NCBI GenBank assembly: GCA_964397755.1
Contig: CAYNJY010000004.1
Coordinates: forward strand, 1,117 to 65,116
Length of the DNA: 64,000 nucleotides
Origin: an uncultured Gammaproteobacteria bacterium
GTDB lineage: Bacteria; Patescibacteriota; Microgenomatia; UBA10105; UBA927
Reading direction: 5' to 3'
Below the pieces are notes generated by a model that did no database searches, had not been told where the DNA came from, and worked only from the letters and a program-made list of their open reading frames with translations. Of the stretch, positions 19,304 through 43,135 are shown piece by piece (the stretch's first letter is position 1; each line of letters begins with the position of its first letter). The position numbers and the translations under genes were made by a program.

Positions 19304-20306
19304 ACAAATGTCTCAATCCGACCAATAATTTTTTTCGTTTCTGTTCCAGCCGTATCCCCTCTTCTCCTAATTGGATCTCTTGCAAAGTATATCCGTGAGG
19401 CCGACAGACGGCTTCTACAATTTTGCGCTGCCGATGGTAGCAGAGGAGAAACCCTACCGGGCCGCTCCTGCCGCCCCCTCCGAGGATTTTGGCTGCACCT
19501 CCGGCCTTCTCAATTGAACGGATGAGAGGAATAACCCTCCGGCTCACCACGCCCATACCCTCGAGTGTTCGCAGGCCTTTACGGATAGCGCTCTTAAGTT
19601 TTTCTTCGTTCCCTTGTTTGAGCGCTGCTGTTACCCTTCTTACCTGCTCTTCATTTTCATTAAACAATTTCTCCATTTTTGATTTTTGATATTTGACTTT
19701 TGCTTTTACGTACGCCACCATCTCTCCGGTTGTCTCCTTGGGTCTTCCGGTATCAACGAGGAAAAAGTGGTCGAGCTCTGGCGGCAGTTTTATCGGCAGC
19801 TGCCAAAAACTTCGTAAAAATTCAAGTTCTTTCCGATACCAGAGAAACCCGCCGAAGGTTACCGCTGTATTATCTCCGCCGGACGGGTTGCCGTGCATTT
19901 TTTTCTCGACTTCATAGGCAAGCTGGTTGATGGCCACCGGGTTCCAGACTTTTTTTAGAAAATAGATGAGCGCTCCAACTGTCGCGACGGCCACTGCAGC
20001 CGAAGATCCCACGTGATATCCTGCCGGAATTTGAGATGAAACAGTAACTTTAAGCTTCGGCAAGCTCTCCAGCTTAAGGTGCTCGCGCACTTTCTCGACT
20101 GCATGCCGCACATAGTCCATCGACTCACTTGCTTCAATCAATAATGTGTTACTTGTTGATGGGTGCTTGTCCCGAGTCTTTCCGGGGGAGTGGGTAATGG
20201 TTACAAAGAGCCGCAGGTTTACGGCGGCGATGAGGGCCGGCTTGCCGTAGACCACCGCGTGTTCCCCCATTACATGAATTTTACCGGGAACGGAGACTGT
20301 TACCAT
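19296..20306 (-). CDS. second GHMP kinase of the mevalonate operon (probable phosphomevalonate kinase)
   Basis: 336 aa with VPGKIHVMGEHAVVYG and a GHMP motif (GYHVGSSAAVAVA). It is a paralog of the adjacent kinase. An oligo-repeat encodes KAKVKYQKSKM in frame. Confidence 0.65.
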   Translation of the reverse strand: MVTVSVPGKIHVMGEHAVVYGKPALIAAVNLRLFVTITHSPGKTRDKHPSTSNTLLIEASESMDYVRHAVEKVREHLKLESLPKLKVTVSSQIPAGYHVGSSAAVAVATVGALIYFLKKVWNPVAINQLAYEVEKKMHGNPSGGDNTAVTFGGFLWYRKELEFLRSFWQLPIKLPPELDHFFLVDTGRPKETTGEMVAYVKAKVKYQKSKMEKLFNENEEQVRRVTAALKQGNEEKLKSAIRKGLRTLEGMGVVSRRVIPLIRSIEKAGGAAKILGGGGRSGPVGFLLCYHRQRKIVEAVCRPHGYTLQEIQLGEEGIRLEQKRKKLLVGLRHLYG

Positions 20307-20337
20307 ACAACAACTGCAAATTTTAAAGTTTGAATTT

Positions 20338-20643
20338 TTAAGTACCCAATGGTTTCACCTTTATCCCATACGGAATCACCCCGTCAGGGTCAGGGTGCGT
20401 GACGCGGCGGATAACTGTCACCACCTTCATCCCAATACGTGATTTTTCCTCGGTCGGGTCGACCAGTTGTGCCATGATGCGTCCTCCTCCGCTAAGCGCC
20501 ACGATAACCACCGGGTACGGAGCTTGATCGCTAAATTCTGCCGGCGGTACGCGGACAATTGTCCACGAAATAATCTTCCCTTCCTTGCCGAGAAGGGCTG
20601 CTACTTTTTTCTGATTCCGCCAAATTTTGACCGGACTAAGCAT
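20338..20643 (-). CDS. DUF35-type OB-fold protein (thiolase/HMG-CoA synthase scaffold family)
   Basis: 101 aa OB-fold-like protein located between thiolase and the kinases. This is the position of the DUF35 scaffold in archaeal-type mevalonate operons. No zinc-ribbon part is present. Confidence 0.55.
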   Translation of the reverse strand: MLSPVKIWRNQKKVAALLGKEGKIISWTIVRVPPAEFSDQAPYPVVIVALSGGGRIMAQLVDPTEEKSRIGMKVVTVIRRVTHPDPDGVIPYGIKVKPLGT

Positions 20644-20650
20644 AGGGTAA

Positions 20651-21832
20651 TTACCTTTGTACTATGTGTACCACCGCTGTCGCGCCGCTGCCGCCGACAT
20701 TGTGCGCGAGGCCCACCCGCGCTCCTTTGACTTGACGGTTGCCCGCACGTCCTCGCAGCTGTTCAAACAGCTCAACGACTTGTTTGACTCCGGTTGCCCC
20801 CACCGGGTGTCCACACCCTTTGAGTCCTCCTGATGGATTCACAACCCGCTTCTTTGCTCTGCCGAGGGTCACTTCGCCTCGTGCGACCCCAGAAGCTGCT
20901 TCACCTTTTTTGTAAAAGCCAAGGTCCTCAAGAGCCAAGATTTCAGCAATGGTGAAACAGTCATGGAGCTCAACGACGTCGACGTCTTTTGTCCCGAGTC
21001 CAGCTTGTTCATATGCCCGCTTGGCTGCCTCCCGCGTTGCCTTAAGCTCTGTCAGGCTTTCTCTCTGCGCCAGCCCGAGAGTATCCGTCGCCACAGCAGA
21101 AGCAATAATTTTAACGGCTTTTTTGGTCATTGAAATTTGCTTGCCCTGAGTCTTACCGAAGGGGGATCTGTGATTTGCCGTCAGAATGACGGCTGCCGCT
21201 CCATCCGATATCGGCGAACAGTCCAGAAGCTTGAGGGGGTCGGCGACGCAGCTACTTTTCATAACGTGTTCCACGGTTAAGACCGTGCAAAACTGCGCGT
21301 TGGGGTTCAGCGAGGCATGAAAGTGGTTTTTGACCGCTACGGCCGCAAGCTCCTCTTCGCTCGTCCCGAATTCTCTCATGTGTACGTGAGCCAAAAGGGC
21401 GTAAAGCCCCGGAAATGTGGCGCCGGCGAGCCGCTCCTCGTCGCTTCCTGCGCCCATGAGGGCGGTGGCGACATCCTCGGGCTTGTGGTCCGTCATTTTC
21501 TCTACCCCCAAAACCGCCACCGTTTTGTACTGACCTGAAAGAATACTATTGATGGCTGTGTGAAGCGCCAGTCCGCCGGAAGCACACGCGCCTTCTACTT
21601 TAAATGCGGGAACAAGAAGTCCCAGTTCTTCGGCAAAAAACGCGCCCAAATGCTCCTGTCCGCCGAGCATGCCCGAGAGCATGTTGCCCACGAAAAGTGC
21701 TTCGATATCAGAAACTGATATCTCAGCATCGCCAAGCGCGTCGCTGACCGCTTGCCGCGCGAGCGTTCGGGGAGACACTCCCCAGAGCTCACCGAACTTC
21801 GTGGTTGCTGCACCGATTATTGAAACGTCCAT
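20651..21832 (-). CDS. acetyl-CoA acetyltransferase (thiolase)
   Basis: 393 aa. Active-site Cys regions (VEGACASGGLALH, GHPVGATG) and thiolase N- and C-terminal domains. Confidence 0.85.
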   Translation of the reverse strand: MDVSIIGAATTKFGELWGVSPRTLARQAVSDALGDAEISVSDIEALFVGNMLSGMLGGQEHLGAFFAEELGLLVPAFKVEGACASGGLALHTAINSILSGQYKTVAVLGVEKMTDHKPEDVATALMGAGSDEERLAGATFPGLYALLAHVHMREFGTSEEELAAVAVKNHFHASLNPNAQFCTVLTVEHVMKSSCVADPLKLLDCSPISDGAAAVILTANHRSPFGKTQGKQISMTKKAVKIIASAVATDTLGLAQRESLTELKATREAAKRAYEQAGLGTKDVDVVELHDCFTIAEILALEDLGFYKKGEAASGVARGEVTLGRAKKRVVNPSGGLKGCGHPVGATGVKQVVELFEQLRGRAGNRQVKGARVGLAHNVGGSGATAVVHIVQR

Positions 21833-21908
21833 AATCTATACATCTGCACATGGCAAATCTGCGTCAGTCATGTATTTGCTTATTTGTAGATTTGTTTATT
21901 TGTAGATT

Positions 21909-22952
21909 TTAAATCGTATGTGTCTGCTTCAAATACTGCACGTAATCAATGTACGTCTTGTCCTTCATCTGATCTCTCACCGTCATCTTTCTCGTCGTTC
22001 GTTGTTTGTTGTATGGTGTAAGTCCGCGGGTTGTTTCAAAAAGCAGCGCGTCGCTTCCGGCCCCCGACCCGTACGACACCATGAAAATTCTCTCGCCTGG
22101 TTTGGCAATATCGAGAACCGCGGCTAAACCGACCATTGACGATGCCGAGTAGGGGTTCCCAATCTGATCAACAACAAGTGATGGCGCGAGCTGTTCCATA
22201 GCAAATCCGAGTCGATCAGCAACAATCCGCGGAAATTTCCCATTCGGCATGTGGAACACGCAGTAGTCGATGTCTTGCGGTTTGATGTGGATCTTTTCAA
22301 AAAGGCGAAGCGCCGCCCCTGTAACGTGCGCAAAGTATGCCGGCTCTCCGGTAAAACGGCCCGCATGCGACGGGTAGCGGATCCCGTCGCGTCGCCAAAA
22401 ATCAGGCGTATCTGAGGAGTAGGATGTGTAAGCAAGAAGTTTTGCAACTACCTTTTCTTTTCCAAGGAGAAATGCTGCTCCTCCCGCTGCCGACGTGTAT
22501 TCAAGAACATCGTGGGGTTTGCTCTGCGCCGTATCGGATCCGATTGCAAGTCCGTACCGTGCCTGCCCGCTTGTGATGAACACTGCGATTGCCTGCATGC
22601 CAGCGGTACCAGCTTTGCAGGCAAATTCAAGATCCGCCGCCAGATAATTGTTTCCAATGCCTAAAAGCTCACCGACTATTGTCGACGTCGGGTTGACGGC
22701 ATAGGGATGGCTCTCTGACCCAACAAGTAAGGCTTCAATATCCGAGGGTTTACCCTTCCATGCCTGAAGACACCTCAAGGAAGCCTCAACGGCGATGGTG
22801 ACCGCGTCCTCGTCGTAGGCAGGAACAGCCTTCTCTGTGAGTCCTAAAGATCTGGTGACCTCGCCCGGATCCTTTCTCCACGCCGAGGCAATATCGGCGA
22901 CCTTGAGCCGATACTCTGGAATATAGATGCCGTAGGAAACAATGCCAACCAT
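21909..22952 (-). CDS. hydroxymethylglutaryl-CoA synthase
   Basis: Start at ATG 22952 (MVGIVSYGIYIP...). The HMGS-type condensing-enzyme fold carries the catalytic Cys region (AGSDALLFE..). The upstream extension in the ORF track is made of repeat sequence. Confidence 0.85.
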   Translation of the reverse strand: MVGIVSYGIYIPEYRLKVADIASAWRKDPGEVTRSLGLTEKAVPAYDEDAVTIAVEASLRCLQAWKGKPSDIEALLVGSESHPYAVNPTSTIVGELLGIGNNYLAADLEFACKAGTAGMQAIAVFITSGQARYGLAIGSDTAQSKPHDVLEYTSAAGGAAFLLGKEKVVAKLLAYTSYSSDTPDFWRRDGIRYPSHAGRFTGEPAYFAHVTGAALRLFEKIHIKPQDIDYCVFHMPNGKFPRIVADRLGFAMEQLAPSLVVDQIGNPYSASSMVGLAAVLDIAKPGERIFMVSYGSGAGSDALLFETTRGLTPYNKQRTTRKMTVRDQMKDKTYIDYVQYLKQTHTI

Positions 22953-22954
22953 AT

Positions 22955-22985
22955 GTTTCAAATCCCAAATCTCAAATCCCAATGT
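22955..22985. repeat. oligomer tandem repeat (CAAATCC-type x4) at the HMGR/HMGS junction
   Basis: caaatcccaaatctcaaatcccaatg. It spans the HMGR stop and the 20-nt gap before the HMGS start. Confidence 0.8.
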
Positions 22986-24153
22986 CCAAGCCTCGCGCCA
23001 AGCGCTGGTGTGCCGCTGCAAGCGTCCCTTCAGATAGCGAGGCCAGAAGCGATAGCTCACCGGCAAGCACTGCTCCTGCTACTATCTCTGCAAACCTCTC
23101 TGCGTTCTCTCCCTTGTTTCCTCCTGCAACACCCAGTATCTCAAGCGCTTCCTTCTGTGTCGCCAGCCCCGTCCCCCCGCCCACCGTCCCGACCATGAGA
23201 TTAGGAAGGTACACGCTCACATATACATCTTCATTTCTTCCGTTTTCCTTTCTTACGACTTCCATCGTCGTTATGCCAAGCGCTCCCTCGGCGACGTGCC
23301 CGGGATCCTGTCCAGTCGCAAGAAACAGCGCCGCGACAACGTTGGCGTATTGGGCGTTGAATCCCACCGACCCGCTCATGGCTGAACCGATCATACATTT
23401 AGCTAACCACACGTCAAAGATTTTCTGTGCAGAGGTTTTAAGAGTATGGCGAAGCACTGACGAAGGAAGTGTTACCTCAGCCCATACTTTGAACCCTCGC
23501 CCCTCAATCACATTGAGCCAGGATGGTTTTTTATCAACGTCAAAGTTTCCGGCTAAACTAACACAGCGCGCTCGGGTCTTTCGTTCAATTGTTCGAACAA
23601 TTGAACTCGTGGCGATGGTTGCCATATTCATCCCCATGGCATCCTGGGTATCAAAGACGAAGCGGACAAAGCAGTACCTTCCTACTCCCCGGGCGAGAAA
23701 TTTTTTGAGGGTTACGTGCGCTGAGGTCTTTTGGGCAATCTTTTGAAGCAGTTCGAAATGCTCCTCAAGAAAGTTGTTCAGTCGATCGTTTTGGGCTAGG
23801 TTGGCCAGCTTAAATACCACACCCCGGGTGGCTCCCACCCGGTAGCTGTCCACCACCGCCCCACCACTCTCGGTTATTGCTTTACACCCGCGGTTAACCG
23901 ACGCCACCAGCGCCCCTTCGGTGGTAGCCAAAGGAATAAAATAACTTTTAACTTTTACCTTTAAACTTTTGACTTGTAATGGGCCGGCGACTCCCATGGG
24001 AATCTGCGCCACGCCGATCATGTTCTCGCAGTTACGGGAGGCGGCAACCGACTCGTCAAGGGTGAAGGAGCCGGTGTTTTTTAAATCGACTTGTAACTCC
24101 TTTTCCAAAGCCTCTCTTCTTTCCTTAACGGTCTTCATGTCGCGTAGCTTCAT
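22972..24153 (-). CDS. hydroxymethylglutaryl-CoA reductase
   Basis: HMGR signature regions (EGRGFKV, DAMGMNM, GTVGG). Start assigned to MKLRDMK; the upstream MFHCQKLNVTMEQ stretch is encoded by repeat DNA. The last residues (LDIGI) are encoded by a CAAATCC-type repeat. Confidence 0.8.
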   Translation of the reverse strand: MKLRDMKTVKERREALEKELQVDLKNTGSFTLDESVAASRNCENMIGVAQIPMGVAGPLQVKSLKVKVKSYFIPLATTEGALVASVNRGCKAITESGGAVVDSYRVGATRGVVFKLANLAQNDRLNNFLEEHFELLQKIAQKTSAHVTLKKFLARGVGRYCFVRFVFDTQDAMGMNMATIATSSIVRTIERKTRARCVSLAGNFDVDKKPSWLNVIEGRGFKVWAEVTLPSSVLRHTLKTSAQKIFDVWLAKCMIGSAMSGSVGFNAQYANVVAALFLATGQDPGHVAEGALGITTMEVVRKENGRNEDVYVSVYLPNLMVGTVGGGTGLATQKEALEILGVAGGNKGENAERFAEIVAGAVLAGELSLLASLSEGTLAAAHQRLARGLDIGI

Positions 24154-24235
24154 GGTTTCATGGCTACATTGCTCCATGGTTACATTGAGTTTTTGACAAT
24201 GAAACAATGTGGCAATGGAACAATGTTGTACTAAA
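24150..24235. repeat. CAATGNNN-type octamer repeats at the HMGR start
   Basis: catggtttcatggctacattgctccatggttacattgagtttttgacaatgaaacaatgtggcaatggaacaatgttg. This is near-identical to the copies at 9556-9592 and 46850-46878. Confidence 0.75.
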
Positions 24236-24848
24236 GGAACGGCACTTTAAAGATCCCCCACCGGTACATGAGCCAGCTGTAGGCAGCAAGGACCGGCGCG
24301 GTGAGCCCCCACACGGCGACAATCCGCGGGAGATCGAGCTTCATACCGAAACGGAGCGTAAGGTACCCAAGGATAACTTTCCAATAAAACAGGGTCGCAG
24401 AAAACACAAGATAGAGCGTGCTAAACGCCACCCCAAGGGCACGCTCTGTCCGGGGCGGAGGCAGGACCACGTAGAGGAGCGATGTTGCCAGAAACCACGC
24501 AGTCGTCGGAACGAGCGTATACGCCCACGTAAGCGCGAGAGAAGTCGCTCCCCCTCTTCCGCCAAATAGCCGCGAAATCAAAGAGAGCATAGCGACAGCA
24601 ATAAGATAGCCAAGAGCTGCACCGGCGGACAAAAGAACAAACTGCTTCGTCAGAAGGAACGGCCGGAATGCCGCAGTTTTGACGATTGAGGCGAGCGCAA
24701 AGTAGGCTGCCAACATAGCACCAATGTAGACAAGCTCCCAGAGACTCCCTCGATCAACAATCCTGCGGTACGTTTCGTACGGCCGTACCACAAGGCCGAT
24801 TATATTTCGGCAAAAAGAAACCCCGGCGATGAGAAGGTGGTCAACCAT
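24231..24848 (-). CDS. hypothetical polytopic membrane protein (Yip1-like?)
   Basis: 205 aa with 5 predicted TM helices. No catalytic motif recognised. Confidence 0.45.
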   Translation of the reverse strand: MVDHLLIAGVSFCRNIIGLVVRPYETYRRIVDRGSLWELVYIGAMLAAYFALASIVKTAAFRPFLLTKQFVLLSAGAALGYLIAVAMLSLISRLFGGRGGATSLALTWAYTLVPTTAWFLATSLLYVVLPPPRTERALGVAFSTLYLVFSATLFYWKVILGYLTLRFGMKLDLPRIVAVWGLTAPVLAAYSWLMYRWGIFKVPFL

Positions 24849-24886
24849 ACAGTAGCGCGTGGTAAGATATTAGTCGGAGCTGAAGG

Positions 24887-25114
24887 CTAAAACCCGCGCT
24901 GGAGGATGGTCACAAGCAGGGTGATTGCCGACCCAACGAGGAGGTACAACCCGACGACGGTAACCAGGCTTACCAGAACCAGAAGCGGCCACGGCATGAC
25001 CTTGAGCCGGCGGGCTAGCTCCTTATAAAACGGCGTCAGCGGCCCGAGTGTCTGGGGCGGAAGGTCGGTGACCTCCTCCCAGCGTTTTACGAACTTTTGA
25101 TATGTTGTTGTCAT
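24887..25114 (-). CDS. small single-TM membrane protein co-transcribed with the ECF sigma factor (anti-sigma candidate)
   Basis: 75 aa. Its start overlaps the stop of the sigma gene (ATGA). One TM helix (LLVLVSLVTVVGLYLLVGSAI). Confidence 0.4.
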   Translation of the reverse strand: MTTTYQKFVKRWEEVTDLPPQTLGPLTPFYKELARRLKVMPWPLLVLVSLVTVVGLYLLVGSAITLLVTILQRGF

Positions 25115-25650
25115 GTTGATAAAAAAAGCTCCACGAAGGCCTTCCGTGCGCGGAAGAGCCGAGATTCGGCGCTTTTGAACGTGATGGACAGTTTTTTCGC
25201 AATATCCTCGACCGAGAAGTCTTCCAGGTACTTAAGTGTCAGAACGTTGCGGTAGATGGGGAGGAGGCGAGCTAAAACATGGCGAATTTTTTCTTTGAGT
25301 ATCATCACGTCAAACTCCTCTTCCGGGCTCACGATCGGCGAAACCAGTGATTCAAGCTGGGGGAACTGAGAAAACACCACGTGCTTGATCTTCTTCTTGC
25401 GGTAGAAATCGACAATCTTGTGCTGGCAGATGGAAAACAGAAACGTCTTGATGCTCGCGTTCCCGTGGAAATCGCGGATTGCCTCAAGAAACCCAAACAG
25501 CGTGTCTTGAAGAATTTCTTCGACGTCGTTGGGATTCTGTACCTTCGCGAGGAGAAGTCGCCGGAGAAGCGGCGTATATGTTCTGTAAAAAGCCGCTAGT
25601 GCCTGCCGGTCGCGCCGGAGTATGTTTCGAACGAGCTCGTCATCCTTCAT
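25111..25650 (-). CDS. ECF-type sigma-70 family RNA polymerase sigma factor
   Basis: Start at ATG 25650 (MKDDELV...). Region 2 (VEEILQDTLFGFLEAIRDFHGNASIKTFLFSICQHKIVDFYRKKK) and region 4 (FSVEDIAKKLSITFKSAESRLFRARKAF). It is divergent from the pilin array. Confidence 0.75.
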   Translation of the reverse strand: MKDDELVRNILRRDRQALAAFYRTYTPLLRRLLLAKVQNPNDVEEILQDTLFGFLEAIRDFHGNASIKTFLFSICQHKIVDFYRKKKIKHVVFSQFPQLESLVSPIVSPEEEFDVMILKEKIRHVLARLLPIYRNVLTLKYLEDFSVEDIAKKLSITFKSAESRLFRARKAFVELFLST

Positions 25651-25687
25651 GGAGGAGGTAGTGGAGACTATACCACGGGGAGGGCTC

Positions 25688-25722
25688 GTTGACAACCGCC
25701 CTGCCCCTCACATACACTGATC
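25688..25722 (+). promoter_or_regulatory. sigma-70-like promoter for pilin paralog 3 (leaderless candidate)
   Basis: TTGACA, an 18-nt spacer, TACACT, then ATG about 3 nt after the -10. The TTG used as start in the ORF track is the first triplet of the -35 TTGACA. Confidence 0.35.
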
Positions 25723-25724
25723 GT

Positions 25725-26027
25725 ATGGATGGCGTCAATCTCGGCGATCCGTTGGTCTTTTCTCCTGCTACATCTTTCCCCACATTTGGGGATTTTGTTG
25801 GAATCGTCATAAAGAACGCGTTTGTCGTCGCGGGACTGTTAAGCTTTATCATATTGATTTTGGGCGGTTTCCGACTTATAGTAGCTGGTGGAGACACGAA
25901 GAAGCTTGATCAGGCAAGGGGAGCAGTCAGCGGTGCTGTTACTGGTTTGATTCTTGTGGTCTCATCGTACTGGATTGTACAGATAGTTGAAGCGATTACC
26001 GGTCTCCCACTATTATCACCCAAGTAG
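25725..26027 (+). CDS. VirB2/TrbC-like T4SS pilin family protein (paralog 3)
   Basis: VVAGLLSFIILILGGFRLIVAGGDTKKLDQARGAVSGAVTGLILVVSSYWIVQIV. Start assigned to ATG 25725. Confidence 0.6.
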   Translation: MDGVNLGDPLVFSPATSFPTFGDFVGIVIKNAFVVAGLLSFIILILGGFRLIVAGGDTKKLDQARGAVSGAVTGLILVVSSYWIVQIVEAITGLPLLSPK

Positions 26028-26031
26028 CTAT

Positions 26032-26382
26032 ATGGACAAGAATGTTTCGGACTTATTTGGTACGATCACAAATCCGCTGAATCGCTACGGCGGCCTTGAC
26101 GAAGACGGGCTTATCTTATTCCTCACAAACATACTTCGCTTGGTGTTCGTCGCTGCGGGCGTGTACGCTTTCCTCAACATCATCGTTGCCGGCTTCCAGT
26201 TCATGAACGCAGACGGTGATAGCAAGGCCATTGCTACTGCCTGGAAACGCATCTGGCAATCGCTCGTGGGGCTCGTTCTCATTACTGGGTCGTTTGCTCT
26301 CGCTGCTGTTTTTGGCTATCTCATATTTGGCGACGCGGGCTTTATCCTCCGACCGCGCGTCTTTGGCCCGGGAGGAGAGTAA
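26032..26382 (+). CDS. VirB2/TrbC-like T4SS pilin family protein (paralog 4, divergent loop)
   Basis: FVAAGVYAFLNIIVAGFQFMNADGDSKAIATAWKRIWQSLVGLVLITGSFALAAVFG. Same two-helix topology. The loop is diverged. Confidence 0.55.
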   Translation: MDKNVSDLFGTITNPLNRYGGLDEDGLILFLTNILRLVFVAAGVYAFLNIIVAGFQFMNADGDSKAIATAWKRIWQSLVGLVLITGSFALAAVFGYLIFGDAGFILRPRVFGPGGE

Positions 26383-26387
26383 AGCAT

Positions 26388-26792
26388 ATGGCAACACCAA
26401 CTGGAACACCGATCGGAGAAATTTCAGGACCAGGGCTCGGACCGTTTGGGACAATTACGAAAGAACTCGCCTCTGGTGAAGCCGGCGGTGTTACCGGCCT
26501 CCAAAAAGTCTCAAACATCATCTCGGGCATTATCGGCATCTTAACAGTCGCCGCAGGTATTTGGTTCATGATCCAGTTTCTCATCGGGTCCTTCTACTGG
26601 ATCACCTCTGGTGGAGATAAAGGGAAGCTTCAAGAAGCGAAAAACAGAATCACGCACGCGTTTATCGGCCTCATTATCGTCATTGCCGGCTGGTCGATTA
26701 TCGCCCTCATGGGTAAATTCTTCAATTTTGATATCCTCCTTTCTGAGCCAAGAACGATTATCCGAGGTCTCTACCCTGGAGGAGGTCAGTAA
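26388..26792 (+). CDS. VirB2/TrbC-like T4SS pilin family protein (paralog 5)
   Basis: IIGILTVAAGIWFMIQFLIGSFYWITSGGDKGKLQEAKNRITHAFIGLIIVIAGWSIIALMG. ATG start. A 1-nt gap separates it from the next paralog. Confidence 0.65.
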   Translation: MATPTGTPIGEISGPGLGPFGTITKELASGEAGGVTGLQKVSNIISGIIGILTVAAGIWFMIQFLIGSFYWITSGGDKGKLQEAKNRITHAFIGLIIVIAGWSIIALMGKFFNFDILLSEPRTIIRGLYPGGGQ

Positions 26793-26793
26793 C

Positions 26794-27144
26794 ATGGAAC
26801 GAGCGCTCGCGGTGATTCGAAACCCCATTCTTCCACCCTCCCTTGGCGGCGGCACCGCGCCATCGGTTGAATCGGGTGGCAAGGGGGTGGGGCTTCTTAT
26901 CGGGAACATCATTGGTGGGCTTTTTATCTTTGGGTTTATCATTGCTTTTTTCTACCTTCTCACGGGCGCGTTCTTCTGGATTACGAGTGGCGGCGATAAG
27001 AACGGGTTGGAAAGTGCAAGAAACCGCATCATTCACTCCCTTGTTGGGCTTTTAATCCTCGCATCTGCCTGGGCGATGTTCTCACTGGTTGGGAAGTTTT
27101 TCGGTATAGATCTGCGGAACCTGCCGATCCCATCAATTAAATAA
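26794..27144 (+). CDS. VirB2/TrbC-like T4SS pilin family protein (paralog 6)
   Basis: Start at ATG 26794 (MERALAV...). FIFGFIIAFFYLLTGAFFWITSGGDKNGLESARNRIIHSLVGLLILASAWAMFSLVG. Confidence 0.65.
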   Translation: MERALAVIRNPILPPSLGGGTAPSVESGGKGVGLLIGNIIGGLFIFGFIIAFFYLLTGAFFWITSGGDKNGLESARNRIIHSLVGLLILASAWAMFSLVGKFFGIDLRNLPIPSIK

Positions 27145-27168
27145 ACCCCTATTGACAAGGCTCCTCTT

Positions 27169-27198
27169 GTTGCACAACAATGAATGGTAGCGTATAAT
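27169..27198 (+). promoter_or_regulatory. sigma-70 promoter upstream of pilin paralog 7
   Basis: TTGCAC, an 18-nt spacer, TATAAT, then GAGGAGG Shine-Dalgarno 7 nt before ATG 27224. Confidence 0.5.
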
Positions 27199-27223
27199 CA
27201 TTTTGTTTCACGAGGAGGACTCT

Positions 27224-27556
27224 ATGCATAAAGTGCTCGCACAGGCGAAAATTGAAATCAAGCAACCGTCTTCCATCAGAATCACTGAAATCGGACAACT
27301 CATTAGCGCGGTTGTCGGCACTCTTCTCATCGTTGCAGCCCTGTTGGCGTTCCTCTACCTCATTCTCGGAGGCATCAAGTGGATTACAAGCGGCGGAGAC
27401 AAAGCCGGCATGGAAGAAGCGCGCAATAAAATCACCCACGCAATCGTCGGACTTATTATCGTCGGCGCTGCCTGGGCCATCATGACGCTCATTCAAAACT
27501 TCCTCGGCGTCACGATCATTGGCGGAACCATTGAGTTTCCAAAGCCTTTTTTATAG
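27224..27556 (+). CDS. VirB2/TrbC-like T4SS pilin family protein (paralog 7)
   Basis: LLIVAALLAFLYLILGGIKWITSGGDKAGMEEARNKITHAIVGLIIVGAAWAIMTLI. Start at the SD-preceded ATG 27224. Confidence 0.65.
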   Translation: MHKVLAQAKIEIKQPSSIRITEIGQLISAVVGTLLIVAALLAFLYLILGGIKWITSGGDKAGMEEARNKITHAIVGLIIVGAAWAIMTLIQNFLGVTIIGGTIEFPKPFL

Positions 27557-27639
27557 GCAAAAACACTAAGGGACGTAAAAATCCTCGACGACAGCCGGGG
27601 ATTTTTGTTTTTCAGGAAATACCGTATACTCTACGTACC

Positions 27640-27969
27640 ATGATTCTCCCGCTTCTTTCCGTCATCCGGGCCGCGCCCCTCACGGATACGATCGAGGACG
27701 TTCCAACAATTCTCTCGTTCGAGTCGCTCTTCCGCAATATTGTTGGTGCCGTCGTTGCACTCTCTGGGATTGCGATTTTCATCATGCTCCTCGTCGGGGG
27801 CTTTACGTACCTCTTCTCCGGGGGTGACCAAAAAAAGCTCGAGCAAGCCCGTGGCACTATCACCAATGCTGTCGGCGGGCTTGTCATTATCGTCGCAGCC
27901 TACCTCATCCTTCAGACCATCAAGGCGTTCACCGGCGTTGACGTCACAATCTTTCGCATTCCTCGGTAA
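27640..27969 (+). CDS. VirB2/TrbC-like T4SS pilin family protein (paralog 8)
   Basis: VVALSGIAIFIMLLVGGFTYLFSGGDQKKLEQARGTITNAVGGLVIIVAAYLILQTI. Confidence 0.65.
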   Translation: MILPLLSVIRAAPLTDTIEDVPTILSFESLFRNIVGAVVALSGIAIFIMLLVGGFTYLFSGGDQKKLEQARGTITNAVGGLVIIVAAYLILQTIKAFTGVDVTIFRIPR

Positions 27970-27983
27970 CCCTACGGCGTGAT

Positions 27984-28012
27984 TGACGCAGGTGCGATTC
28001 GTAGCGCATAAT
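27984..28012 (+). promoter_or_regulatory. sigma-70 promoter upstream of the VirB6-like gene
   Basis: TTGACG, a 17-nt spacer, CATAAT, 14 nt before ATG 28026. Confidence 0.45.
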
Positions 28013-28025
28013 ACAAAGCGATACC

Positions 28026-29570
28026 ATGAAAAAACACTTTGTTCGTCTTAGTGCGTTCCTCCTCACGCTTCTTGTTGCGATCGGTCTCCTTTCTCGTCCG
28101 ACAATTGTTCGTGCCCAAGGCGCTCCTCCTAATTCTATTCAGAGCTGGTTTTCTCACACGGCGGCTAGCTTTATTCAAGATCTAGAAGCTGCACGCGCCG
28201 GCGGCATTGTGAAAGAAGCTGCAGACAGTTCAAGCATCATTAATCCGCAGCTTGTCCTTGCGTGCGAAATTCTCGGGTGCACCAATGATCTCACGCACCC
28301 GTTTGGGTACCAGCGGAGTCTCCTTGCGTTCGTCGACCGAACGGTTATTGCGATGTACGCAACACCGGTTGCGAGCACCCAGCTTTTCCTCGTTGACCTT
28401 GGAAAAAGCATCGGTCTCCTCCACCCGGCATACGCGCAGGGCGTCGGGTTCTCCGGACTTGAGCCGCTCCTTCCTATATGGAAGGCGTTTCGCAATATCG
28501 CTTACATCCTCCTTGCCATCATCCTCATCGCAGTCGGCTTCATGGTGATGCTGCGGAAGAAGATCGATCCGAAAACGGTGGTCACGGTACAAAATTCCCT
28601 TCCGCGCATCGTCGTTGCCCTTATTCTCATCACCTTCTCCTACGCAATCGTCGGACTCATGATTGACCTCATGTACCTCTCCATGCTGTTTCTCATCACG
28701 ATACTGGTCAACGCAAGCGGCGGGCTTCTCGGGAGTGATACTGCGGCAAAATACCTCGGCGGAGGATTCTGGAGTGCAGTTGGCGCGCTCTTTTCCGGAG
28801 GTATCCGCGCATTTGATGACTTTATCGCGCTTATTCCGAAGGGTGTGAGCGCAACAATTACGATTGTCCCTGGACTTCTCGCTGGCCTCTTTAGCGGAGG
28901 AAAACTGAGCGGCTTCATCACTGGCCTTGCTGCAGCACCCGCACTTTTTTTGCTTCTCATCGCCCTCGTCGTTCTCTTTGGCATAGTGCGGCTCCTGTTC
29001 ATGCTCATCGACGCCTACATCCATATCATTATCGCGCTTTTGACTGCGCCTATTCAACTTCTGTTTGATGCGATCCCGGGGGTCAACGCCTTTGGCGCGT
29101 GGTTCCGAAACCTCCTCTCCCGTCTCATCGTATTCCCGGTGACTGCCGCCATGCTCCTCATCGGCACGATTCTCACGCGCTATGAAAAAAATCCTGTCGG
29201 TATCCCTGGATTCGGGTCACAAAGCCCGGCGCTCTGGGGTCCGCCGTTTCTGACGAGCGATTCCGGCGTCCACGGCATGGCCGGGTTCATCGGCCTTGGC
29301 ATCCTCCTTTCGATCCCGATGATTGTCGCTGGGATTCAAAAAACACTCAAGGGCGAATCGATTATTCCCGGAGGCCCCGGCGCCATCTTCGGCCCAGCCG
29401 GTGCAGCATTCGGACAGCTTCTTCAGGTCGGCTACTATGGAACATTTATTACAAGCGCCTTCCGTCACAAGCAAGCAGAGAAGTCAGCCTACCAGCAGGT
29501 GCGCGAGGGAGCATCAAAAGGCATTGGGGTGCTCACAGGCGGCGGTGGAACGGGCGGTGGCGGACACTAA
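28026..29570 (+). CDS. VirB6/TrbL-like polytopic T4SS membrane protein
   Basis: 514 aa. Signal peptide, a roughly 130 aa N-terminal extracytoplasmic segment, then 7 or more TM helices with Gly-rich loops and a Gly-rich C-terminus. It is immediately downstream of the pilin array. Confidence 0.5.
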   Translation: MKKHFVRLSAFLLTLLVAIGLLSRPTIVRAQGAPPNSIQSWFSHTAASFIQDLEAARAGGIVKEAADSSSIINPQLVLACEILGCTNDLTHPFGYQRSLLAFVDRTVIAMYATPVASTQLFLVDLGKSIGLLHPAYAQGVGFSGLEPLLPIWKAFRNIAYILLAIILIAVGFMVMLRKKIDPKTVVTVQNSLPRIVVALILITFSYAIVGLMIDLMYLSMLFLITILVNASGGLLGSDTAAKYLGGGFWSAVGALFSGGIRAFDDFIALIPKGVSATITIVPGLLAGLFSGGKLSGFITGLAAAPALFLLLIALVVLFGIVRLLFMLIDAYIHIIIALLTAPIQLLFDAIPGVNAFGAWFRNLLSRLIVFPVTAAMLLIGTILTRYEKNPVGIPGFGSQSPALWGPPFLTSDSGVHGMAGFIGLGILLSIPMIVAGIQKTLKGESIIPGGPGAIFGPAGAAFGQLLQVGYYGTFITSAFRHKQAEKSAYQQVREGASKGIGVLTGGGGTGGGGH

Positions 29571-29583
29571 CACCATATTGACG

Positions 29584-32500
29584 TTAATGGCCGCCCTTTT
29601 TCTCTTCTTCTGCAATCGCTTTTTCCGCAGCCACCGCAATCGTCGCAGCCACAAGGACCCACCAATATTTGCGTGCCATTGCAAGCATTCGCCAGTTGAG
29701 CGTGGTTTTGAATTCCTTCCGCAGGTCATGGGCAAGCTCAGGTTTATCCGTGAACAACCCCATGTCCTCCATGGTATTGATGACCTCTTGAATCTTAAAC
29801 TCGTCCCACGCATTACCTTCAGAACCGGTGTAGCGGACTGAATACGAAATCGCCTGAGCGATCGAGTGCGGCCAGTGAGAGACCCGTTTTTCGGCGATGT
29901 TGTGCCACCTGCCATTGGTTAGTTTATTGAGAAGTTTATTGTCCTTCCAGTCCCGAGCATCAATTTCGTGGGCGTGCTTCATAAGCGTAGAAAGCCCGGG
30001 GACCCAACCAACGCTCCGCAGTGACCGGTGGCGGTTGAACTCGATGAACACCCGCGCGAGCTCCTTCATGACCGGTTCAGAAACTGGCGTGCCTACGTAG
30101 TTATTGATCGCGGCGCGAATTTTATAGAAGTGCTTAATCGTCTCTACCGGATCATTCGGCGACATAAGACTCGCTTCTGACATAAAGGCGAGGATCCCAT
30201 CCCTCGTCTCCATTTGATTGCCGATATCGCGAATCCTGCGGTGCATCGCAATCGAACCAAGTTGGAAAAAGTTTACGTCTTTCCAGTTAAAATCTGTTAG
30301 AGACAATGTGAGGGGCAATGCTTCGTTCGCGATCGCTTCGAGTATTGATTTATACTGGATGCCTTCGATCTTCGTATCTCTTCTTTTTGTAAGCTCTTCC
30401 TGCATGTCAACGAGTACGCCGCGGAGTGCCTCAAACCTTCCTTCAGGAACGCCTCTTGTTCGTAAAAATGGCACGATAACTGCGTCGAAATCTTCCTTTT
30501 TTGCAAGATCCATCTTCGCGAGGCTAAACCTCTTATCATCGTACAGCTTCACCTCGGCAAGTGAAAGAGCGCCTTGAAACGACCCCCATTCTTCCTTTGT
30601 AATTCCTCGTTTTTCAAGAATCCTACCCGTATCGTCGCGAAGAAGAGAGAGGAACTTCGATGGATTCCGGCGCATCATGCGCTCGAGAATACCCATCCTT
30701 CTGCCAGGACTTTTTTCTACTAGAAACTGAATGCTAAGCGCCTGATTTTCAAGCTGGGCTCCGTCGGGAAGTTTCTGCATCTCGAGGACTTTATTCCGAA
30801 CTTGCTCTGCCGCGCCTTTGTCTATCCTCCAGGCGCTCCCGTCCATTTGGCCGCCGCCTGAGAGGAATCCCGGTCCCAGAAGTTCGGTGAAGGAGATGCC
30901 GGTATTTTGCTCGGCAAACTCCATAACCTCCATGGCATAGCGCACCTCGGGATGCTTCTCTGTTTTGAATCGCTCCTTCCACTCTTTGGTCTGGGTGACT
31001 TTAAAGCCTCTCGGCGCTTCCTGTTTCTTCGTCATTCTGAGGTTTCTCCGGAGTATTCCGCGGGCGGTTTTGCCCATCTCGCCACCGATATTAAACCTAT
31101 GCGCGAATGCTTCTGGGTTAAAGATCCGAACCAAATCCTCAAACGCCGGCGCGCGCATGACGTCTTTTCCAGACGGCGCCGCAAACTCCGGGTACTCGTA
31201 GCGGGCTGGAGTAGACATGAAGGCGCTGATTGCCGCCATGCGACCGCTTCCGATCATGGCAGTTCGTGCCGCCCAGATAGCCATCCGAACCTTCCATTCT
31301 GGAGGATCCCCGTTTTCTCCCATTACCTCCCCCTTCATTTTACCCTCTGTTTTGAGATACTCGAGCAACCGCTCTCGAACTTCGATATCAATAGGCGACA
31401 GTCCGCGGGTTGCAATGAGTTCCTTGGTGTAACTCTCGTCCAGAGTCGCCTTCCGACGGCTGTAGAGTGTGTAGAGCTTGTTTGCACGCTCGAGCTCCTC
31501 CTGCTCAATCTCAGTAAGCGTCCCTCCTTTGTTGAGTTTTTCCACAAGTGCATCTCTGTATGCTCGTGTTTTTTCAAGAACAAGATACACCTCTGTGTAG
31601 CTGAGGACATCATCGTCCCAGAGGGAAACTCCTTCTGCCGCAAGATCCCGCTTTGCCTCAATCTCAAGCATCATTCTCTGCTCTTCGGTTGTCAGGGTGC
31701 CGTACGTGGTTTCTCCCGGCGTGGCGCCGGGAACTTCCTCTGCGTGTTTCTCTCGTAGAATCTTGAGTAAGTCCTCGCGGCTTATACGCCTCTTTTCATA
31801 GAGGGCTTTATTGGGGTTTTCTATAGCCTTTTTCCCGACTTTTTTCTCCGGTGGAGCTTTGCCGAAGAGCGGATTGTCTACCTCCTCCTTCAAAAATCGT
31901 ATAGCCTCTTGGTACTTGCCTTGCCTTTCGGCAAGCGTTTCGGCAACCACGTGTTCGTAGAGGCTCGCCGCGTAGTTTGAAAATTCGTAGTTTTTATAGA
32001 GGTGGTCAAGATCAGCTCCCGTGAGGAGCGCCATTGCTTTGAGCCGGTCCTTGACGTCGCCGGGGTTGTAGAGAAGCCCTTTGACTGCGTATTCGTAGGT
32101 ACCGCGACCATCCCAGTGCTTCTGGTAGAGCTCGTTGACTAGGTTGTACTCTGCGCCGTACTTCCACCGCAGGTACCGCTTAAACTCTTCAAACTTCTGC
32201 ATCTGTGGCAGGTCCGGGTGCGATTGCTCCTTTCCCAACCGGTAAATTTCGTCAATGAAGTTAAAGTACCAATCTGCCTCTCCGTCCGACCCGTTTCGTA
32301 TGTTTCTCACCTCATCCTCACCGAAATAATCTGAAAAAATATAATCTTCTTTTCCGATTCTCTCTGCCCGTTCGCGTTCAGCCTTCGGCGCTTGGCTGGC
32401 AATGTCGTCCCATCGGACGACGCGCTCCCCGAAGCGCTGTTTCCGACTACTTTCAAGCTGTGTCACGGAAGCATGCGCAGAAATTTCTTGGAGTATCTTG

Positions 32501-33237
32501 AGGCGCTTTCCTATTTCTTCCCGTACTATTGGGTCCTCGAACTGCTTCGCGCCGAGCTCCCGGATGCTTTGGATGTAGTGTTCAAGCTCTTTGGGATTCT
32601 GCGCTGCCTGCGCATCAAGGGTAAGCTCGCGTTTAATCTGCTGTATGCGGCCTCCGACCTCTGTGTCTTTCAATGGATCGATCTTATCGGCATACAGATT
32701 GTCAATCAGACCATCAAGACGGACTATGGGGGTGTCTAAAATTTCGTGGAATTCTGCTCTCAGCGTCGGCTGGTGTTCTGTGATTCTACGCAGGTACCGC
32801 GCAGCTTCCCTCCCTGCGGGGCTATGAATTTTTTCGTCTTCAATAATTGCCTTGAGTTTCTCCCCGACGCGGCGTAGGTACGCGGGGTCTACAAGGCGTG
32901 CCTCGTCAGCAGAAGCCATCTCTTCAACTGCCTCAAAAACGCGGAGGTTCCTTGGCTTCTCGCCGCCTAAAATTTTTCTCGCTGCTTCTGACGAACTTTC
33001 TGCAAGTTTCTTTGTAAGTTCCTCAAGTCTATCCGCAGGGATGTCGTGTTTCTCGGTTTTTCTCTTTGGCTTCTTGGCTTCCTCTTCTCCCCCCGGAGGT
33101 TTCTCGGGCTCTTTGGGTACTTCTGCCCCGGGCACCGCGGCATCTGCCGGCGGCTTCTCCGACGGAGGACCTCCAGCTCCGCCCCCAGCTTTTCCTCCCA
33201 GTGCACCCGGTCCTTTGAGTACTTCTTCACCAGCCAT
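29584..33237 (-). CDS. very large hypothetical protein (about 1217 aa) with disordered Gly/Pro/Glu/Lys-rich N-terminus and C-terminal TM anchor
   Basis: Start assigned to MAGEEVLKGPGALGGKAGGG. The body is predicted largely alpha-helical with no recognisable catalytic motif. The C-terminus is ...RKYWWVLVAATIAVAAEKAIAEEEKKGGH. It is convergent with the VirB6-like gene. Confidence 0.55.
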   Translation of the reverse strand: MAGEEVLKGPGALGGKAGGGAGGPPSEKPPADAAVPGAEVPKEPEKPPGGEEEAKKPKRKTEKHDIPADRLEELTKKLAESSSEAARKILGGEKPRNLRVFEAVEEMASADEARLVDPAYLRRVGEKLKAIIEDEKIHSPAGREAARYLRRITEHQPTLRAEFHEILDTPIVRLDGLIDNLYADKIDPLKDTEVGGRIQQIKRELTLDAQAAQNPKELEHYIQSIRELGAKQFEDPIVREEIGKRLKILQEISAHASVTQLESSRKQRFGERVVRWDDIASQAPKAERERAERIGKEDYIFSDYFGEDEVRNIRNGSDGEADWYFNFIDEIYRLGKEQSHPDLPQMQKFEEFKRYLRWKYGAEYNLVNELYQKHWDGRGTYEYAVKGLLYNPGDVKDRLKAMALLTGADLDHLYKNYEFSNYAASLYEHVVAETLAERQGKYQEAIRFLKEEVDNPLFGKAPPEKKVGKKAIENPNKALYEKRRISREDLLKILREKHAEEVPGATPGETTYGTLTTEEQRMMLEIEAKRDLAAEGVSLWDDDVLSYTEVYLVLEKTRAYRDALVEKLNKGGTLTEIEQEELERANKLYTLYSRRKATLDESYTKELIATRGLSPIDIEVRERLLEYLKTEGKMKGEVMGENGDPPEWKVRMAIWAARTAMIGSGRMAAISAFMSTPARYEYPEFAAPSGKDVMRAPAFEDLVRIFNPEAFAHRFNIGGEMGKTARGILRRNLRMTKKQEAPRGFKVTQTKEWKERFKTEKHPEVRYAMEVMEFAEQNTGISFTELLGPGFLSGGGQMDGSAWRIDKGAAEQVRNKVLEMQKLPDGAQLENQALSIQFLVEKSPGRRMGILERMMRRNPSKFLSLLRDDTGRILEKRGITKEEWGSFQGALSLAEVKLYDDKRFSLAKMDLAKKEDFDAVIVPFLRTRGVPEGRFEALRGVLVDMQEELTKRRDTKIEGIQYKSILEAIANEALPLTLSLTDFNWKDVNFFQLGSIAMHRRIRDIGNQMETRDGILAFMSEASLMSPNDPVETIKHFYKIRAAINNYVGTPVSEPVMKELARVFIEFNRHRSLRSVGWVPGLSTLMKHAHEIDARDWKDNKLLNKLTNGRWHNIAEKRVSHWPHSIAQAISYSVRYTGSEGNAWDEFKIQEVINTMEDMGLFTDKPELAHDLRKEFKTTLNWRMLAMARKYWWVLVAATIAVAAEKAIAEEEKKGGH

Positions 33238-33353
33238 AGAAAAATCGCGCCACTGTGACGCTCTCCTGACTATTCTACTGCCACGAAATGCCGGGCGCAA
33301 GCACAGAATACTAGTTGTCGTCAGCCTGTATTACATCACTTTAGAATCCCCGC

Positions 33354-34706: not shown

Positions 34707-34775
34707 ACGTTGCCTATTATAATTCGTGAAAAGAAAAATTGGTAGTTTTCACGATTCTGATGCGCTTTTTTATAC

Positions 34776-34804
34776 TTGATGCCAGCGGTATAACCTTCTA
34801 CAAT
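34776..34804 (+). promoter_or_regulatory. sigma-70 promoter upstream of the T4SS-like operon
   Basis: TTGATG, a 17-nt spacer, TACAAT, about 40 nt upstream of ATG 34844. Confidence 0.4.
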
Positions 34805-34843
34805 ACTTTCTGCGGCTCTCAGTGTATACTTTGCTATCAACGA

Positions 34844-42958: not shown

Positions 42959-43135
42959 GTGTATATACCTAGTTGTAGTAGAAGAGGCCAGCGTGGAGAA
43001 GTGTATTGCTTTTTGTTCCGGGTGTCAACGGCGGAGGTTTTGAGGTTTTTAGAGAGGGGAAAAAGGTGGGTTTTTATGTGGAAAAGGATGTGGATAAAAA
43101 GGAAAAAATTGTGGAAAAGTGGATAACCCCAGTTT
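42959..43135. promoter_or_regulatory. DnaA-box cluster in the dnaA-dnaN intergenic region (origin element)
   Basis: Perfect box TGTGGATAA at 43089-43097, near-perfect GTGGATAAC at 43119-43127, TTATGTCCACA at about 43133-43143. AT-rich flanks. Confidence 0.55.

Follow-up and report, generated by a model that had tools for sequence, protein, structure and literature searches.

Six tandem and two distant pilin-family hairpin genes with positional orthology near a putative type IV secretion operon in a Gottesmanbacteria-like genome

A 64,000-nt stretch of contig CAYNJY010000004.1 in assembly GCA_964397755.1 (the window) carries six consecutive small genes, B1–B6, and a separate pair, A1 and A2, whose products form a divergent family of two-helix hairpins matched by a pilin profile of type IV secretion systems (T4SSs). 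By its sequence, the host is a Gottesmanbacteria-like member of the Microgenomatia, within the Patescibacteria. Genome comparison identifies the six array positions as ancient orthologue groups, kept in fixed order and copy number; conserved copy number, positional orthology, synteny and the retained A1–A2 locus together indicate that the complement of six plus two is an old, stable feature of the lineage rather than a recent expansion. Our preferred reading, to which we give a probability of roughly 0.7, is that the array and A1/A2 are the pilin complement of a chromosomal, origin-proximal Patescibacteria T4SS of monoderm type (derived from the mating-pair-formation class FATA, MPF-FATA), working by the mechanism proposed below. 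Pilin arrays in Patescibacteria have already been published, and the window is a well-preserved, strongly conserved example of them, not a new kind of system. It sharpens the question of what these arrays do rather than revealing a new phenomenon, and its increments are fixed orthologue groups, candidates for a major subunit and an adhesin pilin, and a divergent VirB6 candidate.

Eight divergent hairpins of one pilin family

An earlier reading of the window, made from the letters alone (the first-pass annotation), had counted six consecutive small pilin genes and two further copies. The open reading frame (ORF) list, a start-codon survey and public gene calls agree with this count. Coordinates below come from the ORF list, the sequence and the start-codon survey; on an identical public contig, independent gene calls give the same lengths for B1–B6 (100/116/134/116/110/109 aa) and for the 514-aa gene that follows them.

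15570–16352, plus strand: A1, pilin whose C-terminal two-helix core follows a Sec-type signal peptide, a beta-sandwich ectodomain and a Cys-stabilised helical module (260 aa, GTG start)
16354–16707, plus strand: A2, short pilin paralog directly 3′ of A1 (117 aa; PF18895, 35.8 bits; two transmembrane (TM) segments)
25725–26027, plus strand: B1, pilin of the position-1 orthologue group (100 aa; PF18895, E = 7.6e-5)
26032–26382, plus strand: B2, pilin of position 2, with the most divergent loop, NADGDSKAIATAWKR (116 aa; PF18895, E = 3.4e-5)
26388–26792, plus strand: B3, pilin of position 3 (134 aa; PF18895, 31.2 bits)
26794–27144, plus strand: B4, pilin of position 4 (116 aa; PF18895, E = 6.4e-4)
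27224–27556, plus strand: B5, pilin of position 5, candidate major subunit (110 aa; PF18895, 42.0 bits)
27640–27969, plus strand: B6, pilin of position 6 (109 aa; PF18895, 41.4 bits)

Hydropathy resolves two hydrophobic segments of ~20–35 residues in all eight proteins, set around a loop such as TSGGDKAGMEEARNKITH; with the loop alignment, this bears out the shared architecture of helix, conserved loop and helix that had been described. The loop consensus TSGGD.K.L..ARN+I is matched almost exactly by B3, B4, B5 and A2, and the loops of B2 and A1 (TSAGNPERLIAGKEL) lie furthest from it. The paralogs are, as had been noted, dissimilar, with pairwise identities of 18–40%. BLASTP links most pairs at E-values of 1e-4 to 1e-21, leaving B2 and A1 as outliers that are joined to the other paralogs through A2 and B1. 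A hidden Markov model (HMM) built from the eight paralogs and searched against a six-frame translation of the window gave exactly eight matches, the next best having E = 1.5.

Profile searches against Pfam, which the first-pass annotation had proposed as a check, place all eight proteins in PF18895 (T4SS_pilin), at E-values from 1e-10 to 1e-3. B3, B5, B6 and A2 score above the gathering score of 26.6 bits, and B1, B2, B4 and A1 fall under it at 19–24 bits (E = 3e-5 to 1e-3), these four being linked to the other paralogs by BLASTP and through their orthologues. Of 146 orthologues, 144 match at E < 0.01, and the family is large: a profile search recovered 72,057 clusters at 50% identity (E <= 0.001). 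Membership of the classical TrbC/VirB2 family (PF04956; gathering score 27.9 bits), as first suggested, did not hold. Only B6 matches it, below threshold (21.0 bits, E = 3.9e-4), the other seven proteins give no match, and just 2 of the 146 relatives match at E < 0.01. A tblastn search of B6 against 72,556 plasmids returned two insignificant matches, both in Bacillales.

Six positions conserved across related genomes

Scanning species-representative genomes with an alignment of the 514-aa protein yielded 80 loci, mostly from Gottesmanbacteria metagenome-assembled genomes (MAGs), at 35–52% identity; named homologues and loci come from Candidatus Gottesmanbacteria, Woesebacteria and Microgenomates MAGs. 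We compared 55 loci, nearly all of those with upstream flank available, each from a different species-representative genome. Exactly six pilin ORFs stand directly upstream of the 514-aa gene in these 55 loci. Deviating lineages have two (L065, L068, L069 and L072) or eight (L071).

Each position is an orthologue group of its own. Mean identity across genomes at positions 1–6 is 48, 57, 51, 49, 68 and 51%, against 24–44% between positions, and the nearest neighbour of a pilin in another genome occupies the same array position in 329 of 330 cases. Within a related locus, the pilins share on average 30% identity and at most 55%. B1–B6 map to positions 1–6, and A1 and A2 fall in none of the six groups. 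B1 is 46% identical on average to position-1 genes of other loci, compared with 28–30% to other positions; identity to the own class is 56% for B2, 49% for B3, 49% for B4, 72% for B5 and 53% for B6. The position classes (48–68%) are about as conserved as the 514-aa protein itself (median 41%).

Synteny extends well beyond the pilins. The order HMGR–Yip1–orf75–sigma factor, pilins–514-aa gene, 1238-aa gene–NadD and PrgI–orf229–VirB4 is kept in 33–57 loci, with the sigma-factor gene beside the array in 57. In two other genomes for which the full context is available (L083 and L084), the A1–A2 pair stands between SpoIID and UppS, upstream of the mevalonate genes; in L071 it stands beside SpoIID.

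The cross-genome comparison of copy number and sequence tells against one early suggestion, that the six-gene array serves variable surface display: copy number and order do not change, and the genes at every position form an orthologue group. This constancy points instead to fixed, non-redundant roles rather than variation cassettes, and it argues against a rapidly varying hairpin core. In every class, conservation is lowest in the N- and C-terminal tails (33–59%) and highest in the helices and loop. Variability is concentrated in the A1 ectodomain and is milder in the short N- and C-terminal tails.

The position-5 class stands out, with segment identities of 80% in TM1, 90% in the loop and 84% in TM2; B5 has 1,251 homologues, some of them called 'pilin' by NCBI. 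With the highest conservation of all the paralogs, and with a conserved promoter, ribosome-binding site and terminator to itself (below), B5 is a candidate for the major, bulk subunit. The domain PF26067, precomputed for some position-5 orthologues, was absent when three of those orthologues were scanned against Pfam.

The B-type proteins begin with 20–48 mostly polar residues ahead of TM1 and have no hydrophobic leader. An N-terminal motif, M-E-K/R-V-F-A-Q, is common to the position-1 and position-5 classes, which are otherwise ~28% identical; its versions in the window are MHKVLAQA in B5 (27224–27247) and ..NLLAQA in A2 (16354–16400). The motif resembles an AxA-Q signal-peptidase site, yet no hydrophobic leader accompanies it, and it could be a processing or recognition signal.

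Conserved expression signals within the array

Conservation of the expression signals points to three separately conserved promoter arrangements, ahead of positions 1, 5 and 6. The signals in the window are:

25689–25718, plus strand: promoter-like site TTGACA-18-TACACT, ending 6 nt 5′ of the B1 ATG in a leaderless arrangement
27152–27218, plus strand: B5 promoter region and ribosome-binding site, with TTGACA (27152), TTGCACAACAAT (27170), TATAAT (27193–27198) and GAGGAGG (27212–27218)
27570–27613, plus strand: terminator-like hairpin and U run 3′ of B5 (RNA fold −15.5 kcal/mol, z = −2.2)
27625–27630, plus strand: −10-like TATACT, 9 nt 5′ of the B6 ATG, near-leaderless
27983–28012, plus strand: promoter-like TTGACG-18-CATAAT ahead of the 514-aa gene, from a promoter scan

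Both signals that the first-pass annotation had picked out, a leaderless promoter at B1 and a −35/−10 pair with GAGGAGG ahead of B5, are present and recur in related species. A TAnnnT box, usually TACACT, lies 5–10 nt 5′ of the position-1 ATG in 43 of the 55 loci and, among the loci listed, is usually preceded by TTGAC-N17. A TACACT box also stands 6 nt 5′ of the A1 GTG, the same geometry as ahead of B1. Within the array, GGGAGGAG sits 8 nt 5′ of the B3 ATG and GGAGGAGG precedes the B4 ATG.

The region 5′ of B5 contains two overlapping promoter-like sites, TTGACA-18-AACAAT and TGCACA-16-TATAAT, at 27152–27198. Upstream of position 5 in the 55 loci we found TTGACA in 47, TTGCRNNA in 41 and TAYAMT in 49, so that the series TTGACA..TTGCGCAA.AAT..TATAAT with GGAGG recurs in 41–49 of the 55 species. 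The usual layout (L001–L078) is TTGACA, ~12–14 nt, TTGCGCAA(C)AAT, ~11 nt, TATAAT, and this promoter is conserved at the nucleotide level among species whose VirB6-like proteins are only ~41% identical. TTGCGCAA is a perfect 8-bp palindrome that occurs without mismatch only once in the window; it may serve as an operator as well as a −35 box. A search of the window for a regulon found the element TTGCRCAA exactly only once, at 27170, and thus gives no evidence of one. Hairpins with T runs comparable to the B5 terminator follow position 5 in several loci (for example, L027, L029 and L035). At position 6, most loci listed have a GATAAT or TATAAT box a few nucleotides upstream of the ATG, mostly 6–9, and no Shine-Dalgarno sequence.

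A pilin class with a variable ectodomain

A1, in which the first-pass annotation had correctly recognised a hairpin fused to a Cys-containing ectodomain, belongs to a class of 213 homologues of 143–370 aa. Their alignment has four parts: an N-terminal Sec-type signal peptide, present in all aligned homologues; a Cys-rich region that can hardly be aligned and ranges from near-absent to ~250 aa; a C..C...AWTAxGCI motif with almost no variation; and a very conserved hairpin (GIAGGIAFLLILFGGFQILTSAGNPE.LNAGKEL...). The window version of the ectodomain is common to only ~6 homologues, at ~40% identity, and the A1–A2 locus is kept across genomes with differing ectodomains. In an AlphaFold2 model of A1, the Cys-rich ectodomain is a beta-sandwich and the hairpin helices span residues 182–215 and 219–254. 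In the public annotation, A1 begins only with the ATG at 15624 (242 aa, P0241) and so lacks the signal peptide; judged from sequence, the start is the GTG at 15570, which restores a canonical Sec signal peptide in agreement with the homologues.

These features make A1 a candidate adhesin or host-recognition pilin. They also bear on topology: given the signal peptide and the Cys-rich, presumably disulfide-bonded domain, helix 1 would have its N-terminus on the outer side of the membrane. The whole hairpin family would, by homology, share the VirB2 topology, with both termini out and the loop in.

A VirB6-like neighbour and an origin-proximal T4SS operon

The array runs into a gene for a presumed assembly platform, and further T4SS genes lie 3′ of it:

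28026–29570, plus strand: 514-aa polytopic membrane protein with a predicted VirB6-like fold, presumed assembly platform
34739–35950, plus strand: PrgI (VirB3-like) protein with a C-terminal Ig-like domain (PF12666, 27.2 bits against a gathering score of 27; CarboxypepD_reg), kept in 42 loci
35954–36643, plus strand: 229-aa protein between the PrgI-like gene and VirB4 (63% median identity, 38 loci)
36659–38557, plus strand: VirB4 ATPase of monoderm type (P-loop_TraG, AAA_10, CagE_TrbE_VirB)
38577–40805, plus strand: 742-aa protein with an M23 peptidase domain (Peptidase_M23, E = 6.4e-15)

For the 514-aa protein, a VirB6-type polytopic helical fold is supported by two methods; its AlphaFold2 model, built on 28 homologues, has a confidence score (pLDDT) of 65 overall and 70–90 in the helical membrane core. 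No Pfam or NCBIfam model matches it at E <= 0.1, PF04610 (TrbL/VirB6) included, its family profile finds nothing among PDB sequences, and none of 703 homologues carries a precomputed Pfam domain. The earlier description 'VirB6-like' can accordingly be accepted by predicted fold and by position, and not by family HMM. A survey of Patescibacteria T4SSs describes VirB6 homologues as scarce in Microgenomatia and ascribes this to extreme divergence (PMC12102498), whereas the window has a protein of VirB6-like predicted fold directly 3′ of its array; the 514-aa family is a good candidate for the missing divergent Microgenomatia VirB6.

The VirB4 gene, 8.7 kb downstream of the array, has its best PDB match in the monoderm VirB4-like protein 4ag5 (E = 2.8e-45). 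The 742-aa M23 protein is a candidate T4SS cell-wall hydrolase, analogous by position to PrgK/VirB1. No VirD4-type coupling protein or relaxase domain was found in any scanned ORF of the window. With dnaN and dnaA at 41852–44572, 3′ of the T4SS operon, and the minimum of the cumulative GC skew falling there, the T4SS adjoins the replication origin. The pilin and T4SS region lies entirely within ~17 kb of this probable origin, which matches what the survey describes for Microgenomatia (PMC12102498).

Relation to published pilin arrays and known pilins

The survey by Quinonero-Coronel et al. 2025, which traced PF18895 and PF04956 across 3,035 genomes, reports 441 Patescibacteria arrays of 2–11 pilin genes, enriched in Microgenomatia, with a mean identity within arrays of 25% and a maximum of 54%; T4SS genes there are commonly near dnaA/dnaN and mostly lack a relaxase (PMC12102498). 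Against this background, eight pilin genes, which the first-pass annotation had called unusual, are unusual only by comparison with classical T4SSs. An array in the survey is at least two pilin genes in tandem or one gene apart (PMC12102498); the window has six consecutive genes and a separate pair, with VirB4, PrgI and dnaN/dnaA nearby and no relaxase or type IV coupling protein domain found, as in the association described there.

In the sections of the published accounts compared here, the window resembles Southlakia epibionticum (SEML1_0006–0019), TM7x and the surveyed arrays in its tandem, divergent PF18895 two-helix pilins. It shares with Patescibacteria arrays the chromosomal monoderm-type T4SS near dnaA without a relaxase, the within-array identity of ~25%, the six genes per array and the Microgenomatia enrichment. 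It differs in four features that those sections do not describe, namely a complement fixed at 6+2, positional orthology that is strict among Gottesmanbacteria-like genomes, a dedicated position-5 promoter and a pilin class with signal peptide and variable ectodomain. Wang et al. contrast the Patescibacteria T4SS with Gram-positive conjugation systems, noting that it lacks a coupling protein and relaxase, and present it as the only T4SS shown to be essential for its own bearer's growth (PMC10633639). The six Southlakia pilins are described as essential as a series (PMC10633639, PMC12857230), and a 2025 review restates the pilin arrays and speculates on a pilus conduit (PMC12857230).

Among systems with experimental support, the closest functional analogue is PrgF of the Enterococcus plasmid pCF10. 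A December 2025 preprint identifies PrgF as an essential VirB2-like protein and models it as a pilus on a pentamer of PrgH/VirB6, with the loop residues D37, D38 and R40 lining the lumen (bioRxiv 10.64898/2025.12.18.695078). Like the window proteins, PrgF is a small hairpin of two TM segments joined by a short charged loop, and its gene shortly precedes a VirB6-like gene; the pCF10 order prgF-prgG-prgH-prgI-VirB4-hydrolase corresponds to that of the window, and the acidic and basic loop residues of PrgF have a counterpart in the GGD..R/K signature. In contrast, pCF10 has one pilin gene where the window has eight, and it conjugates DNA with a coupling protein and relaxase, neither of which is found in the window.

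The TrbC/VirB2/TraA pilins (PF04956) likewise have two hydrophobic helices, a short loop and linkage to VirB6 and VirB4. Their loop faces first the cytoplasm and then the lumen, an orientation that for the window proteins is predicted. Unlike them, the window proteins fail to match PF04956 in seven of eight cases (144 of 146 among relatives), come from a monoderm host without a VirB7/9/10 outer-membrane complex, exist as many paralogs and, in the B type, appear to lack the long cleaved leader. Bartonella and Anaplasma, as cited in the survey, also have several divergent VirB2 copies for one T4SS (PMC12102498). Those are read as antigenic or host-range variation, whereas the window copies are ancient fixed orthologue groups. 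The best NCBIfam match for seven of the eight window proteins, below threshold and over the hairpin, is the Mbov_0395 family of pilin-like conjugal transfer proteins from Mycoplasma integrative and conjugative elements (NF045849), which hints, but no more than hints, that the hairpin family is indigenous to monoderm systems rather than acquired from diderm ones.

Top profile matches to the hairpin family also include single polypeptides, from outside the window, with 2–17 tandem PF18895-like hairpins (P0361, P0363, P0365 and P0368). P0361 has a signal peptide and six complete tandem hairpins. P0363 also has six, and a member of its cluster comes from a Candidatus Andersenbacteria MAG. No mention of such poly-pilins was found in the sections of the Patescibacteria T4SS literature compared.

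A proposed mechanism and its alternatives

In the mechanism that we propose, the hairpins would insert with both termini outside and the GGD..K/R loop facing the cytoplasm, a topology fixed by the A1 signal peptide and its Cys-rich, presumably disulfide-bonded ectodomain. VirB4 would extract them from the membrane for polymerisation on an oligomer of the VirB6-like protein, and the product would be a pilus or a conduit across the cell wall, with the loop lining its lumen as it does in VirB2 pili and in the pilus modelled for PrgF. B5, the most conserved and apparently monocistronic gene, with a strong promoter and Shine-Dalgarno sequence, would supply the bulk subunit, and B1–B4, B6 and A2 would be less abundant subunits, each with a fixed, non-redundant role (initiation, tip or adaptor, for instance). 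Through A1, the filament would display a lineage-specific ectodomain that probably recognises host cells, and the machine would serve the epibiotic lifestyle (host-cell contact or exchange) and not conjugation.

We venture, as a tentative extension that we think will probably not hold in full, a joint proposal in which the eight ancient pilin groups form an obligately heteromeric filament (B5 in bulk, the A1 class mounting a hypervariable host-recognition ectodomain), the 514-aa family is the missing Microgenomatia VirB6, and the poly-pilins of other Patescibacteria are covalently linked versions of the same heteropolymer. If true, this would be a T4SS pilus with a division of labour comparable to the one in type IV pili that have minor pilins and an adhesin at the tip. 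To our knowledge, no such division of labour has been described for any T4SS.

Several observations weigh against a pilin complement working in this way. No filament has been observed for any Patescibacteria T4SS, and pilus assembly is proposed by analogy. The sequence links of the eight proteins to proven pilins are weak throughout: beyond the failed PF04956 matches, the matches of the pilin profile among PDB sequences are limited to a de novo designed protein and viral glycoproteins, with no VirB2, TraA or TrwL chain; homology to PrgF was not detected (hhalign probability 2.9%, a short alignment on the loop) and PrgF has no PF18895 match; and the NF045849 scores of 20–31 bits all lie under the cut-off of 40, indicating a remote relationship only. 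The B-type pilins appear to be without the long cleaved leader of VirB2, TrbC and TraA, and fused poly-pilins are awkward for subunit addition one at a time. The VirB6-like model is moderately confident (pLDDT 65) with Foldseek E-values that are not significant, and hhalign of the 514-aa alignment against PrgH was negative, while PrgH itself matches PF04610. B5 is a candidate major subunit by conservation and expression signals only.

The most serious competitor, although we regard it as unlikely, is a repertoire of alternative pilins, in which each paralog or transcription unit builds its own homopolymer or paralogs are swapped for host surfaces or evasion. Such an explanation has been proposed for the Bartonella and Anaplasma VirB2 paralogs and suggested for Patescibacteria, where the survey suggests host-range versatility (PMC12102498), and it would fit the at least three separate promoter arrangements within the array, the low within-array identity of 18–40%, the hypervariable A1 ectodomain and the fact that the tails, which would be exposed on a filament, are the least conserved segments. 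Against a repertoire stand the six genes in fixed order in 55 loci, with positions about as conserved as the VirB6-like protein; such a pattern marks conserved roles without redundancy, not a variation cassette prone to turnover. Silent cassettes or recombination repeats were not seen either, although no search was aimed at them. The reported essentiality of the Southlakia pilins as a series is also hard to square with redundancy (PMC10633639).

Less probable still is that the hairpins are membrane-embedded or wall-spanning subunits of the T4SS channel without a filament, such as a short, hetero-oligomeric collar seated on the VirB6-like protein. Monoderm T4SSs were long believed to be without pili, poly-pilins with 2–17 domains (such as P0361) suit a ring of fixed stoichiometry better than an open-ended polymer, and the number six recurs in the window array and, in the published accounts compared, in TM7x and Southlakia. 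But the published arrays of 2–11 genes imply no universal stoichiometry (PMC12102498), PrgF behaves as a lumen-forming, pilus-like polymer, and B5 looks strongly expressed, which suggests a bulk subunit. That the genes encode holin-like or unrelated small membrane peptides merely resembling pilins, which the first-pass annotation had named as one outcome that would overturn its reading, we consider effectively refuted as far as it can be tested. B5 has a marginal match to Phage_holin_3_6 (E = 0.065); PHROGs, however, matches none of the nine proteins, and the holin identity is rejected on this ground. There is no lysis-cassette context, with no phage or lysis genes nearby, synteny with the VirB6-like, PrgI and VirB4 genes is strict across genomes, and PF18895 is matched by nearly all relatives (144 of 146).

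Neighbouring genes and other observations

On the 5′ side of the array, genes for an ECF-type sigma factor, a Yip1-family protein and, between them, a 75-aa membrane protein run divergently from it, and beyond these lies a complete mevalonate pathway.

25111–25650, minus strand: ECF-type sigma factor, divergent from the array (Sigma70_r2 and r4_2; 179 aa on the identical contig)

The sigma factor, the 75-aa single-TM protein (anti-sigma-like by position) and the Yip1 protein (24231–25650, minus strand) adjoin the array in 55–57 related loci, and the −35-like hexamers of the divergent promoters on the sigma-factor side and the array side overlap at 25689–25695. Regulation of the pilin array by this sigma-factor group is plausible. 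The mevalonate genes (17415–24207, minus strand), comprising HMG-CoA reductase, synthase, thiolase and three GHMP kinases/decarboxylase, plus UppS, lie between the two pilin loci, and this block is syntenic in related genomes.

On the 3′ side, the 514-aa gene is followed by a convergent gene for a 1238-aa protein, NadE, NadD and then the operon of PrgI-like, 229-aa, VirB4 and 742-aa M23 proteins. The 1238-aa protein (29584–33300, minus strand) has no Pfam match and one C-terminal hydrophobic segment, and is kept in place in 34 related loci at a median identity of 43%; it may be a T4SS-associated component or substrate. The 229-aa protein, soluble-looking and without a match in Pfam or among PDB sequences, is one of the most conserved genes of the neighbourhood after VirB4 (73%).

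The titles of many deposited MAG records with a Gottesmanbacteria-type locus (for example, L002, L008, L009 and L011) read 'uncultured Gammaproteobacteria bacterium', and one record each goes under Woesearchaeota and Bacteroidales; such titles are probably placeholders or wrong taxonomic labels.

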